Assembly (NCBI GenBank): GCA_040143965.1
Contig: JASJQH010000032.1
Coordinates: 1 to 43,381, forward strand
Source of the DNA: Basidiobolus ranarum
Lineage: Eukaryota
DNA length: 43,381 bases
Direction of reading: 5' to 3'
The notes beneath the pieces are model-generated. The model had not been told where the DNA came from, did not search any database, and saw only the letters and a program-made list of their open reading frames with translations. A program made the position numbers and the translations under genes. Positions 3,556 through 42,885 of this stretch are shown here, piece after piece. The stretch's first letter is position 1; each line of letters opens with the position of its first letter.

Positions 3556-6511
3556 TTAGGCGGTAACCTTAGTTTTGATTTCCTTGTGAAGTTGAATATC
3601 GTCATAACTAGCATCTAGGATAATTATATCATTTGTGGGGCCTACGGAGACGGAGGGTGGTGGATGATAAGTAATGGTTGAAAGTAACTGATTAATTTCT
3701 GCCCGATTGGCATTGTGAATATCAACAGTATTCGATGACCATTTTGGAAGCCCTGGGCCCCATGAGAGTTTTCCGAAATTAGCAGAAACCTTCAGGGTGA
3801 ATTTGGTCACATCGGCGGACCCACCACGTACGAAAACTACATTCAATCCATGGAGAGTTTCGCCTTCCTTGGGTGGTGCTTTTATGGTAATATCACTGGC
3901 CCCCATCAATTCGACGCGAGGCAAATTATCCATAGTCTTCAGAGTGAAGTTTTGGAAGATGACATCGACCACACTGCCATGCTTAATCTCGATAGAATTG
4001 GTCATTTTACCGAACAAATGAAGCGACCATGTTTTCTCTGACCAAGATTGAACCTGTGTATCAGCATCGCGGTTAGCCCGGAACATGGCATCCACCGCGA
4101 GGTAACCGACCGGATAAAGGACTTCAGAATCCAAAATATTCAATCCATACTTCTCCAAATAACGATTGTTGCGCACATAAGAGGTGAGAACCTTCGGGCC
4201 AAGACAGTTGTAGCAGTCAGCTGGGATTTCATTTCTAAACAAACTCTCCATCATCTCCCTAAACATGATACGACCACGGCGGAACCTCATCACACCATTG
4301 GCGAGGTACTTGCCAGTATCATCGAGGGTCCATTCTTTATCACTCTCCACCTTCGAGGTATCAGATCCAACAAATTCCATTTGAGTATCTTGAGGAAATT
4401 GAAGCCAAAGGGCGTCCATATCCATATACAACCCACCGTATTTGTACAGACATACAGCTCTTAAATAATCCGATTGACGTACAGGCATGATAGATGACTG
4501 CTTCTGTTCGTTCCAGGTTTTTACCCAACCTTCGCTGTTAGGTCCGAAATACCATCCACGAGACAAGACAAGATCCTTGTCAAACTTAACTACGTGAACT
4601 TGGTATCCGCTTCGCTTAAATTTGTCAAAGAAATTGTCAGGTAAAGTGTTGGAGAGAACCAATACAACTGCTCGGGGATTGTGAACAAAGACCAACTCTA
4701 TGCACTTGAAATGCCTGTCTAGGAACGTAGATTGCCCTGTGGTCCAAATAACCCAATGTAGTAAACTCCAATCGGCGGTTTCAGAGTAGATTGAAGTTTT
4801 GGTGCTTAGCAAATCTGAAATGATCCAATCATCGGCAACATCAGGGTTGATCAAGTTAGGGTCCTCGAATAACTCTCTCTTGCTCTCTTCAATCGTCAAA
4901 GGATCGGGCTTTGTGGTTAAAGTAATACCCTTGACACGATCACAAGAGAATCCCCAATCGTGCCAAGAGGTACCACGACCTGTGCAAGGGTAACACATAG
5001 CACAAAAGAATTGTCTGAAACCATTACATAACCTACGGCCATTAACGACATTATCGTACATGGCATACATGTCTGGAGTAACTTTGAAGGCGTCACTGAA
5101 ATGTTTGGCAATCATGTCATCTTCACAAACATCATTTTGTTGAATGCGGCGATCGTGCTTTGGCTTGATGTTGTAGGGATATAGCCATAGGCCCAAGTTT
5201 TGATCCTCGTTCTTCGTATAAAGTCTAGGGCCATCACTTACAATACGAGAGACAACATCTTTGGATAGAATGTATAGAGCACCAGCAACGTAAGGTGGGA
5301 AGTAGCCCAGGTCATAGTCAAAGGCAGAGTTTTTGTTCGAGCTATCTCTGATAGGTGGGATATCATAGTAAGCTAAGCCTCTCCAATACCATTGTTGAGG
5401 AGGCATCTGTAGCATTTCGTCCCAAACAGTGTCAAATCGAACAAAAATATCATCATCTGTTTTAACGAGGTAATCAAAATCGACGCCATTGGCCCACTCG
5501 AGTGATTTATATGACTTTTTACTCAAGTCCTCATATAAATCAGATGAAGATAACATCAGTATATCTTTATACTGCTCTGTCTCTTGTTCAATTAGTTCCG
5601 ACATTTGTTGCTGTAAACCACCATTCGGTGGCTCTCCAAGAATAAATCTATAAACTGTGGAAATTTGGTCCGAGTTCTTGGGGACTAGTTTGAGAGTAGT
5701 TTCGCGGAAAACTTGACGTTTTTCGTAACTTCTTCGACTCCATGAGGATATGATAACGACCACCATCTTCACCTTAGAATGAGAAATAAGCTCGGTGGAA
5801 CTCACGTTTCGGTTGCCATAAAACACCGGATCTTTGGAATTTTCCGGTACAGTGTATCGAATGTTAGAATTAACATGGAGTAATAATACTAAACTAAGCA
5901 TGGACAATAGAGCAATCGTTGGTAGTACAGCCCATAACAAAGAGCTTAAAGAGACTGGCGGCTGATTAAATATCTGTGATTTAGCGCGAGAGCTAATATA
6001 CCACTCAACAACTAAGCCAAAAGCAGACAAAAAAGAAATCAACACCCAAGTCCAAATTGGCTCCGTGGCTGCATATCTGGAGGCCAAATAGCCAGTAGTG
6101 CCCCATAGAATAAGGTATAAGACTATAGTCTTCCGAACGATTGCAGGCATTACATCCTTATATAACCATCTACCCATAACTGCTTCAACTAAGCGGAAAT
6201 TTAACGCGGCAGTGAGCAGACACTATAGCATCAATAGAAACGTGTATTTAGTACGAGTTGTAGAAGAATGATAAATAAGAAATTCAAAATACCCATAGTC
6301 CAGCGACAATGTATTCCACAGCGCTAATCTTATATGTTAACATTCCAGTGCGAAAGATACATATTAAGTTATATAATACGCCGAATAAACCAGGTACTAA
6401 GCTGGCAGCTCTAAGCAACTTTAAGGGGAGATAATGCTTTCGGAGTAAAGTAGAACCAACAGGATTTCTCCATACAGTTGGCAGAATTGAAGGAGAGCTC
6501 GGATGATGCAT
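3556..6511 (-). CDS. Multidomain membrane glycosyltransferase (~961 aa): EOS1-like multi-TM N-terminus + GT31 (beta-1,3-galactosyltransferase-like) + GT32 (alpha-1,4-Gal/GlcNAc-transferase-like, DxD) + C-terminal Ig/cadherin-like domain
   Basis: Exon 6511-6293 (73 codons) joins in frame through a 70-nt GT-AG intron to exon 6222-3556. GT31 motifs: YLVKTDDDIFV, PPYVAGALYILSKD, NEDQNLGLWL. GT32 motifs: SDYLRAVCLYKYGGLYMDMD, LANGVMRF, GPKVLT, SLHLFGK. Confidence 0.88.
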
Positions 6512-7819: not shown

Positions 7820-8362
7820 ATGCTCATATTCACCGTAGTCCTCGCTTTGTTTTCTTTGATTTCGGGCACCCTAGGTCAGCTTGTTTCATCTAGTACTACT
7901 GGTATCGCCCCAGTAGGGTCTACAAAATCATCATGTGGTGCCCACAATGTTATGGTTTTATGTGTTCAAACCAACACTGAGAAACAAGCTGGTTGTGTAG
8001 CTTTCCCTGATCCTCGTCTCTGTCAGTGTCAATATCAGCATGCTGTAGTGACATGTTACGACCTTTGCAAGGGTGATGTAGGAGCTACCGCAGAGCGACC
8101 ACGGGCTGAAGGAGACACGGTAACCTTGTGTCAAGGCTACAATAACTCCCAGATATTTCCTCCCCAACGAGGAAACCCAGCAACTCAGCCCTCTGCTTCT
8201 TCCCTTTCACCTTCCAAAGCTATACCTGGGCAAGGAGCCTCCGCTGGTGTTCCTAACACTCCTTCCAAATCTTCGTCTCTACAGACAAATTCACAGACTC
8301 AATACCTAATTGTCGCTCTCATGGCTCTTACTATGTCGTTTGTGGTAGAGCACTTTTCCTGA
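7820..8362 (+). CDS. Secreted, probably GPI-anchored 8-Cys (CFEM-like spacing) Ser/Thr-rich cell-surface protein, 180 aa
   Basis: Hydrophobic signal peptide MLIFTVVLALFSLISGTLG, an 8-cysteine domain (C..C..C..CQC..CYDLC..C), an S/P/T-rich stalk and a hydrophobic C-terminus YLIVALMALTMSFVV. Confidence 0.8.
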   Translation: MLIFTVVLALFSLISGTLGQLVSSSTTGIAPVGSTKSSCGAHNVMVLCVQTNTEKQAGCVAFPDPRLCQCQYQHAVVTCYDLCKGDVGATAERPRAEGDTVTLCQGYNNSQIFPPQRGNPATQPSASSLSPSKAIPGQGASAGVPNTPSKSSSLQTNSQTQYLIVALMALTMSFVVEHFS

Positions 8363-42036: not shown

Positions 42037-42885
42037 GATGATGAGCCCCAGGCTTGCACTCTCTGTAATGCCTACTGCTTAGATTTTGGAACTTTTCCCT
42101 CTTCTGAAAGATTGGATGGAGCCTGTTGTCAAGTTTCAATTGTTAAAATGAAAATGTAGCTGCAAGAACAAAGACTTTGGGACACTTTTGTAGAAGAAGA
42201 AAACAATACAAAACTATCTGAAACCAATGTTTTACTCCAGGTTGAAAAAGAACCAAGTGCCTTTTATTCAATATGTTTCCATGTGAAAGACAAATTGCAA
42301 ATTCAATGTTCAAGAGCCAAAACTGGCAAGAAGTTATGGACAGCCTAGGAAGATACTTACCAACCATAGTCTGCTGCTGGCAAGATGTTTCTAAGAGGAC
42401 AATTCTTCAATACAAAGATAAAGAAGGAGTCAACATTAAATCACTAGTTAATAGAGTCACTATTTTAGCAGATGAAATGCAATGCATTGGAGTATCTATA
42501 ACTGATCAGGATATCATAGTTACAGCCCTGAATAGCCTACCACATGATTTTTACAGCCTAGTAATGGCTCTAGAATCAATAACAGAAAATTTGACCTTAA
42601 ATTATGTATTTAGCAGACTTTTGGATGAAGATTTATGTTGATTAGAATCCAACCAAAAGAATGAAAAATATGCTTTAATAGGCTTTATGAAGACTATCTA
42701 TAAAGGTCAAGAGCACTCCAAGAAAAAAGTAATGCATTCAATGATCACTGTAAAAAACTGGCTATTCAAAGTGAAGATTGCTTTAAGGAATTGCAAAGAA
42801 GAGAAACATACTGAATCTGGAACTGTGGTTAGAGCAGAAGATCACTTGCTCATATCTGCTCTACCTATGACTACTAACTATTAGT
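42037..42885 (+). mobile_element. Degenerate Ty1/copia retrotransposon gag (UBN2/Retrotran_gag_2-like) with stops and frameshifts, and a putative PBS at its 5' end
   Basis: Across frames: KMKM*LQEQRLWDTF, AKTGKKLWTA*EDTY, SAAGKMFLRGQFF, LADEMQCIGVSITDQDIIVTALNSLPHDFYSLVMALES...LTLNYVFSRLLDE, and a decayed Zn knuckle HCKKLAIQSEDCF. CA followed by GATGATGAGCCC at 42037-42048 resembles the copia PBS GGTTATGAGCCC. Confidence 0.85.

Follow-up and report, generated by a model that had tools for sequence, protein, structure and literature searches.

The window analyzed here is a 43,381-nucleotide (nt) stretch of Basidiobolus ranarum DNA (assembly GCA_040143965.1, contig JASJQH010000032.1). Its minus strand carries, from position 6511 to 3556, a gene whose 961-residue spliced product fuses an EOS1 membrane domain to two glycosyltransferase (GT) domains of families GT31 and GT32, with a Cys-rich cap between them and a β-sandwich at the C terminus. 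Our preferred reading, at a probability of about 0.45, is that this protein is, by analogy with its nearest characterized kin, a lumenal β-then-α galactosyltransferase extending glycosphingolipids and that its family is a candidate source of the Galα1-6Galβ1-6Galβ lipids of Mucorales.

The fused family is real and conserved, and it has been catalogued before but not explained. The accessible parts of PMC8022947 name EOS1 as a partner of Galactosyl_T, and its supplement lists Syncephalastrum ORZ03950, in clade 7b, as "EOS1 GALT B1/4GlycosylT GB3_synth", uninterpreted; on what these sources give, the fungal clade 7b of Petit et al. 2020 is the fused EOS1-GT31-GT32 family. One GenBank entry of the family is named "Glycosyltransferase Family 31/32 protein". 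In the parts available, PMC13161914 catalogs a "B3GALT6-like" subfamily under sphingolipid glycosylation, without EOS1, and its text describes that subfamily as absent from Zoopagomycota and Dikarya. The table in its supplement 1, taken by column position, gives one member for Basidiobolus, two for Piptocephalis, and one for Mixia, in agreement with the present family and in contradiction to that text. No functional study of the fused architecture was found in the open literature, subscription papers lying mostly outside that scope. New here are a proposed origin of Eos1, a proposed division of labor in Mucorales, the cadherin-like tail, and a specific, testable substrate.

Gene model and exon junction

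Exon 1 (6293..6511; this and all features of the gene are on the minus strand) comprises 219 nt or 73 codons and encodes residues 1-73, the N terminus and helices 1-2a of the EOS1 domain; the B. meristosporus ortholog starts with the same residues. It is followed by a 70-nt GT-AG intron (6223..6292), in phase 0 after Trp73 and not a multiple of three in length, and by exon 2 (3556..6222), a single open frame for residues 74-961 and the stop codon. The sequence-only reading, an earlier annotation of this DNA, had proposed that the intron joins the open reading frames (ORFs) into a protein of about 961 residues. This proved correct: the spliced translation is identical to NCBI model K7432_001437 (protein P0003), which uses the same intron, and the Pfam EOS1 match runs across the junction, with exon 2 alone giving 29 bits.

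The junction is also supported indirectly, because the B. meristosporus ortholog (75% identical) is colinear across 6293/6222 and because the stand-alone EOS1 predictions P0287, P0289, and P0279 carry 18-20 extra residues directly after the same Trp (alignment A2, 80 rows), resembling read-through of an unspliced intron. In the same alignment, the fused model P0018 has a 28-residue insertion at this position. Judged from these protein sequences, the intron position is apparently shared between the fused gene and stand-alone basidiomycete EOS1 genes. A gene-model artefact was rejected as the origin of the fusion: a single exon encodes GT31, GT32, and the tail, and 55 of 89 homologs show the same fusion.

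The EOS1 membrane domain

The EOS1 domain (5857..6442, spanning the intron; residues ~24-195) has five membrane helices, as judged from Pfam, AlphaFold, hydropathy, and loop charges. The Pfam profile (PF12326) matches P0003 at residues 65-211 with 46.3 bits (E 5.8e-12, cut-off 23), covering profile positions 2-96 of 163, which confirms the EOS1 domain that had been proposed for the N terminus; in Pucciniomycotina relatives, positions 2-163 are covered at 132-153 bits. An AlphaFold model of the full protein, built on a 60-sequence alignment (mean predicted local distance difference test score 86.9), places N-terminal helices at residues 20-36, 39-55, 64-95, 98-123, 128-152, and 165-193, followed by two GT-A domains and a final β-sandwich; its predicted template modeling (TM) score of 0.53 leaves the relative packing of the domains unsure. 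A model of stand-alone EOS1 consists of five long helices matching those of the fused protein, and hydropathy at a threshold of 1.5 detects four of the five in P0003. Across the family, the charges of loops 2, 3, and 4 fit an N terminus inside and a C terminus in the lumen, with loop 1 less clear (mean K+R 2.7, D+E 1.8). We infer that the N terminus is cytosolic and the C terminus lumenal.

Aligned Trp, Pro, and Arg positions are common to fused and stand-alone EOS1, and several conserved residues are replaced in Basidiobolus. Outside the genus, EOS1 identity to P0003 is 14-31%, compared with 48-63% for intact GT31 domains, and near-invariance is limited to Trp, Pro, Leu, Tyr, and Arg, without any acidic residue. 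Such fast divergence and such a residue set would be expected of an anchor or a binding module more readily than of an enzyme. The helix ends that would face the cytosol hold a cluster of three Arg and several polar residues. A five-span anchor is unusual for GT31 and GT32 enzymes, which normally have a single span. The EOS1-only model has no clear relative among solved folds (best Z 8.8), and Foldseek gave nothing at E 0.001 or better; kinship to CDP-alcohol phosphotransferases (Z 6.0-7.3) was considered and not accepted, the rows being weak. In exon-by-exon searches of the B. ranarum genome, whose counts are lower bounds, the fused gene was the only EOS1 match and the only Galactosyl_T match.

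The predicted lumenal catalytic domains

The tandem arrangement of GT31 and GT32, both with intact DxD motifs, had been read from the sequence alone; Pfam matches to Galactosyl_T, Gly_transf_sug, and Gb3_synth now bear it out, with KTDDD at residues 327-331 and MDMD at 673-676. That four-module account thus stands for EOS1, GT31, and GT32; the Cys-rich cap after GT31 and the C-terminal cadherin-like domain (residues 843-960) were not described in it.

The GT31 domain (5101..5781; residues 221-447) is a GT-A domain of the B3GALT6 type with its DxD at 329-331, a GALYILS motif, ED at 412-413, and His447, and it matches Pfam Galactosyl_T at residues 241-430 with 92.7 bits. It carries the DxD, GxxYxxS, and (E/D)DxxxGxW motifs as defined in the accessible parts of PMC8022947. 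Conservation was assessed in alignment A1, which holds 60 of the 89 homologs, mostly near-full-length, with short forms left out; DxD is kept in 55 of 60 rows, ED in 54, and KH in 57. Human B3GALT6 is the best match both by sequence (E 4.5e-23; B3GALT5 and B3GNT2 rank lower) and by fold (PDB 9SP7, Z 27.2, root mean square deviation (rmsd) 3.1 over 254 aligned residues), at identities to characterized enzymes of 21-26%. B3GALT6, described as making Galβ1,3-Gal, is however a single-domain enzyme of the glycosaminoglycan linker, whereas the fungal protein spans the membrane several times and carries a second transferase.

Fungal GT31 β-galactosyltransferases are known in Cryptococcus Ggt1 and Ggt2 and in Schizosaccharomyces pombe Pvg3. 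From the source parts available, Ggt1 makes a β1,6-Gal link on a sphingolipid glycan, and Pvg3 works on N-glycans in a complex. Compared by description only, these differ from the fused protein in having a single predicted membrane span and no GT32 domain.

The Cys-rich cap (4912..5079; residues 455-510) contains C472, C480, C483, C486, and C500, together with C439, and is probably disulfide-bonded. Eight ectodomain cysteines, those of the cap included, are kept in all aligned rows of A1 (59-60 of 59-60), as expected of a lumenal part.

The GT32 domain (3934..4785; residues 553-836) is a GT-A domain of the A4GALT/Gb3-synthase type, with DYLR at 658-661, DxD at 674-676, and His808. Pfam Gly_transf_sug matches residues 576-681 (39.4 bits, cut-off 23) and Gb3_synth residues 720-836 (28.7 bits, cut-off 22.3); the DxD is kept in 58 of 59 rows of A1. 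The domain matches retaining-type GT-A folds at Z 13-16; among these fold-search results there is no A4GALT structure. Matches to toxin glucosyltransferases reflect the shared GT-A fold only, and that identity was rejected. A4GALT is described as an α1,4-galactosyltransferase, the Gb3 synthase, and its acceptor is a glycolipid β-Gal. The fungal domain differs in being fused behind GT31 and followed by a cadherin-like domain. In a quick tree (as are all trees here, with Shimodaira-Hasegawa-like approximate likelihood ratio test (SH-aLRT) support only), all fungal GT32 domains fall into a single group with good support, in which a long-branched row is also placed.

A predicted cadherin-like C-terminal tail

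The last 119 residues (3559..3915; residues 843-961) form a predicted cadherin-like β-sandwich, identified by an Atlas fold match and by linked profile matches. The best fold match is to a cadherin-like cluster (TM 0.77, feature score 0.82), and a B4GALNT2-like cluster follows at TM 0.73; both stay under the family-naming bar. A profile of the tail matches all 16 Cadherin_4 repeats of the 2848-residue protein P0179 and also, with 18 bits, part of a chytrid protein; this part aligns to the noncatalytic domain of B4GALNT1. No direct Pfam match to Cadherin_4 or Big_9 was obtained for the P0003 tail, a profile of C-terminal fragments gave nothing meaningful against the PDB, and the whole-model fold searches barely tested this region. 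Taken together, the tail is probably related to bacterial Cadherin_4 repeats and, via the chytrid protein, to the noncatalytic domain of B4GALNT1. The likeness lies in the β-sandwich; the fungal tail, however, ends the protein without a GT12 catalytic domain, which the chytrid relative keeps. This relative, a GT32-cadherin-GT2/GT12 protein of Quaeritorhiza, matches human B4GALNT1 at E 1.4e-20 and contains fibronectin III repeats.

Distribution and wider kin

The homolog set comprises 89 proteins, the query's own included, with modules scored by family-built profiles. All five modules are present in 55 of them, 21 consist of EOS1-GT31-Cys only, and 13, several of them fragments, are without one or two modules. 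Full forms occur in Basidiobolus, Glomeromycotina, Mortierellomycotina, Calcarisporiella, Endogonales, Mucorales, and Pucciniomycotina (Mixia, Rhodotorula, Microbotryum). The family is hence old, being spread over Zoopagomycota, Mucoromycota, and Pucciniomycotina. Two proteins from Leotiomycetes, of Phlyctema and Coleophoma (P0098, P0108), are divergent members whose membrane part has no Pfam EOS1 match; the Coleophoma model is also without GT31. These two may be relics or may stem from transfer. Four members (P0080, P0088, P0092, P0007), each in a single lineage, are joined to YEATS, VanZ, or RNase H domains and are probably gene-model mergers.

Wider kin were taken from the best 150 matches of a profile search of 1.84 billion representatives, 30 of them identified by name. 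They include GT31-GT32 proteins that lack EOS1 (P0127, P0131, P0111, P0119), some from the amoebae Ceratiomyxa and Clastostelium, where they are of type II, and some from other records, P0119 with a CBM_4_9 match just under cut-off, and GT32-cadherin-GT2/GT12 proteins (P0153, P0125, P0139, P0141), one of them from a chytrid. With such combinations around it, the fungal protein appears to be one of several ways in which a common set of glycan-enzyme modules has been put together. Three further proteins (P0115, P0134, P0149) have five to seven tandem GT31 domains, P0115 being from the hemichordate Ptychodera flava.

Divided paralogs in Mucorales

Mucorales carry the family in separate forms. A short EOS1-GT31 form of about 530 residues keeps KTDDD, NEDQ, and KHF in all 14 proteins. 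A long form has an intact GT32 domain and an eroded GT31 domain: the His and NEDQ are gone in four of four and ExD replaces DxD in three of four, and its GT31 identity to the Jimgerdemannia domain is 37-45%, versus 58-65% for the short form. Motif V is still DD in three of four long forms, which counts against calling this GT31 dead, and on sequence grounds a changed specificity is possible. A third form, short and eroded (four proteins, two nearly identical), groups with the long form.

Five genera yielded the GT32-bearing long paralog: Gilbertella, which has all three forms, Phycomyces, which has two, and Cokeromyces, Blakeslea, and Syncephalastrum. Piptocephalis shows the reverse erosion, with GT32 eroded in one of its two copies. 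EOS1 is kept in all Mucorales forms, and its attachment in both paralog types argues for a functional tie to the GT domains. The earlier suggestion that the fusion is a Rosetta-stone clue to EOS1 function is strengthened by this retention, by the sole EOS1 match in the B. ranarum genome, and by the grouping of stand-alone with fused EOS1 described next.

Stand-alone EOS1, a proposed relic of the anchor

When the Phenoliferia domain was used to look for stand-alone EOS1, 58 such proteins came up among 1934 candidates, from Agaricomycetes, Dacrymycetes, and Ustilaginomycetes; the same search with the Mixia domain gave none among 3533 candidates. Eleven of 14 stand-alone rows end 5-7 residues past the helix-5 column. 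The other three are partial models from Serpula and Acaromyces and a Sporisorium protein with a long insertion that, by eye, ends just after the last helix. A tree of 39 rows and 199 columns unites stand-alone basidiomycete EOS1 proteins with the fused Pucciniomycotina ones (SH-aLRT 99) and separates them from Mucoromycota and Basidiobolus; the tree program flags long branches, and the root was assumed from the species tree. Ectodomain loss is the simpler reading, as fused forms lie on both sides of the stand-alone proteins.

This grouping, the apparently common intron, and the end close behind helix 5 make Eos1 look like an anchor whose enzyme has been lost, and the anchor of the fused protein like the ancestral form of Dikarya Eos1. 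Ascomycete EOS1 is represented here only by Atlas clusters of 100-340 residues. The likeness to yeast Eos1 (YNL080C, PF12326), judged through the Pfam family and its basidiomycete members, consists in a homologous five-helix domain above the Pfam cut-off, with basidiomycete stand-alone members grouping with fused ones. Eos1-type proteins differ in ending a few residues after helix 5 with no lumenal enzyme, whereas the fused protein has about 770 residues more. The retention of stand-alone EOS1 in Agaricomycotina and Ustilaginomycotina after loss of the GT domains suggests an independent role for EOS1.

The stand-alone EOS1 of Sporisorium graminicola (P0271) is named Myp1 in UniRef. Ustilago myp1 mutants reportedly have growth and virulence defects; we found no supporting paper.

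Neighboring sequence

The genes adjoining the fused gene are housekeeping genes. A glycan gene cluster was rejected: 14 of 17 neighboring ORFs scanned have a Pfam match, none to a glycosyltransferase. At 7820-8362 (+) of the window, a 180-residue ORF with no Pfam match resembles a glycosylphosphatidylinositol (GPI)-anchored surface protein, with a Cys-rich core and a Ser/Pro-rich stalk between a hydrophobic N terminus and a tail that is hydrophobic as well, and at 42246-42641 (+) lies a copia-type gag fragment (Retrotran_gag_2). Elsewhere in the assembly, about 117 bases at a contig end (L004:1501-1618, end of G000:C10955) match residues 728-766 of the fused gene at 92% protein identity, beside AT-rich unrelated DNA; this piece is either an assembly fragment or a captured piece.

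Discussion

In the reading that we prefer, the fused protein would be an enzyme of the secretory pathway, in the Golgi or the endoplasmic reticulum (ER), with the five EOS1 helices in the membrane and the two GT-A domains facing the lumen. Of these, the inverting GT31 domain would transfer β-Gal from UDP-Gal to the glycosyl head group of a membrane lipid, which may be a hexosylceramide or, in lineages having one, an inositol-ceramide glycan. The retaining GT32 domain would act next, adding α-Gal once or a few times to give Galα-Galβ-hexose-lipid. In Mucorales, the two paralogs would divide these steps, with the Galα1-6Galβ1-6Galβ core as their product. EOS1 would be noncatalytic, serving as anchor and for localization and perhaps holding the lipid acceptor, and stand-alone Dikarya Eos1 would be the anchor left after ectodomain loss.

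We favor glycolipid extension because of the nearest characterized kin (B3GALT6 and A4GALT, which also fit the β-then-α order of sugar addition in the sequence-only reading), the Ggt1 precedent, the lipids of Mucorales, and the supply genes of B. ranarum. The probable kinship of the tail to a domain of the ganglioside enzyme B4GALNT1 counts in the same direction. For UDP-Gal and ceramide supply, B. ranarum has GalE above cut-off at four loci, five full-length PF04142 nucleotide-sugar transporters, and two GT21 ceramide glycosyltransferases; the GalE and PF04142 numbers are an expansion of galactose supply genes. Going by its title, Aoki 2004 describes the Galα1-6Galβ1-6Galβ core in zygomycetes, which according to citing literature are without inositol ceramides. 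The zygomycete glycolipids of the earlier proposal come from Mucorales, where they occur in the absence of inositol sphingolipids. The B. ranarum genome, in contrast, has three genes (L009:1273-2391, L010:1135-2235, L011:1354-2472) that we take to be Aur1-like from PAP2_3 matches and known motifs, and the acceptor in B. ranarum may hence differ. Among the four PF04488 matches in this genome there is no clear Sur1-type GT32.

Besides the Aur1-like genes, several points weigh against this reading. The nearest characterized kin make β1,3 and α1,4 links, not 1,6, and the plant precedent for a β1,6-linking GT31, GALT31A, is described as disputed. B3GALT6 is reported to act on a glycan attached to protein instead of on a lipid. 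The literature covered contained no glycolipid chemistry for Basidiobolus, Glomeromycotina, or Pucciniomycotina. UDP-Gal is not among the sugars predicted for Glomeromycota, which keep an intact fusion, in the accessible parts of Schwerdt 2021 (PMC8092308), and an Ire1 test places the yeast eos1 deletion with stress of protein folding and N-glycosylation and not with stress from lipids (PMC3172275, in part). The homolog matches listed hold no long form for Mucor or Rhizopus, and the amoeba GT31-GT32 proteins indicate that the pair does not always need EOS1.

The same two-step enzyme could instead cap protein-linked glycans (N-, O-, or GPI-linked) with Galβ and then Galα, with EOS1 anchoring it near the N-glycosylation machinery, which we consider unlikely. 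B3GALT6 and related plant GT31s are described as acting on protein-linked galactans, Pvg3 acts on N-glycans in its complex, and yeast EOS1 is tied to N-glycosylation, its deletion stressing the ER via unfolded proteins (PMC3172275, PMC6582843, in the parts available). However, the GT32 domain is of the Gb3-synthase type with a weak sequence match to Och1 (E 0.024), the tail is probably related to a glycolipid enzyme, and yeast Eos1 is reported to stand alone, so its phenotype need not mirror the ancestral enzyme.

More doubtful still is an alternating co-polymerase of the LARGE/EXT kind, in which each domain would use the product of the other to build (β-Gal, α-Gal)n for the wall or extracellular matrix. 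LARGE1, EXT1/EXT2, CHSY/CHPF, and WbbM likewise have two catalytic domains per chain, and here two intact GT-A domains of opposite stereochemistry share one polypeptide. Labor is divided between paralogs in EXT and CHSY/CHPF, and the Mucorales paralogs, with the reciprocal erosion in Piptocephalis, could by analogy be an EXT1/EXT2-like pair. Pvg3 and Ggt2 are described as showing that GT31 can accept α-Gal, and a related GT31-GT32 protein, P0119, has a carbohydrate-binding module (the CBM_4_9 match just under cut-off). On the other hand, these systems belong to other domain families: whole-model matches to LARGE1 and CHSY3-CHPF have rmsd >20 Å, leaving the GT-A fold alone in common, and a Pfam scan at E up to 0.05 found no LARGE or exostosin family in P0003, its domains being Galactosyl_T and Gly_transf_sug/Gb3_synth. 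The closest solved relative, B3GALT6, is reported to take a β-Gal acceptor, and no such polymer was found for these fungi in the literature covered, seen in part.

We attach similarly low weight to the view that at least one of the domains uses a sugar other than galactose (GlcNAc, GalNAc, Glc, or Man, for example) or that EOS1 has an unrelated activity which the fusion merely co-localizes. The low identity to characterized enzymes and the GlcNAc and GalNAc transferases reported within GT31 leave room for other donors, but B3GALT6 and B3GALT5 outrank B3GNT2 in both sequence and fold searches. The stand-alone EOS1 proteins kept after GT loss and the Arg/polar cluster speak for an independent role, and the attachment of EOS1 in both Mucorales paralog types speaks against it.

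The boldest extension, quite improbable in our estimate, would make EOS1 a lipid-handling module that captures or flips a glycolipid precursor from the cytosolic face for the lumenal transferases. In that view, the neogala-type glycosphingolipids that Mucorales have in place of inositol sphingolipids would owe their missing synthase to the fused family, acting there as a heterodimer of half-active paralogs, and yeast Eos1 would be a lipid handler serving separate enzymes in trans. Other literature drawn on, in the parts available, comprises PMC11150766, PMC8341767, PMC4174763, PMC11595932, PMC12217166, PMC12942302, PMC8186459, PMC10481521, and PMC8778642.

For the family, these results suggest in concrete terms how Eos1, a membrane protein widespread in fungi and without assigned activity, could have evolved. 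Mucorales resist inhibitors of inositol-ceramide synthesis, which makes an enzyme of their substitute lipids of interest as a drug target. The paralogs described here are testable candidate genes for the galactose-rich glycosphingolipids of Mucorales reported in 2004, an enzyme for which was not found in the literature searched; dihexosylceramide does not appear among the literature matches listed. Arbuscular mycorrhizal fungi also have an intact fused gene, whose product could be important where fungus and plant meet.

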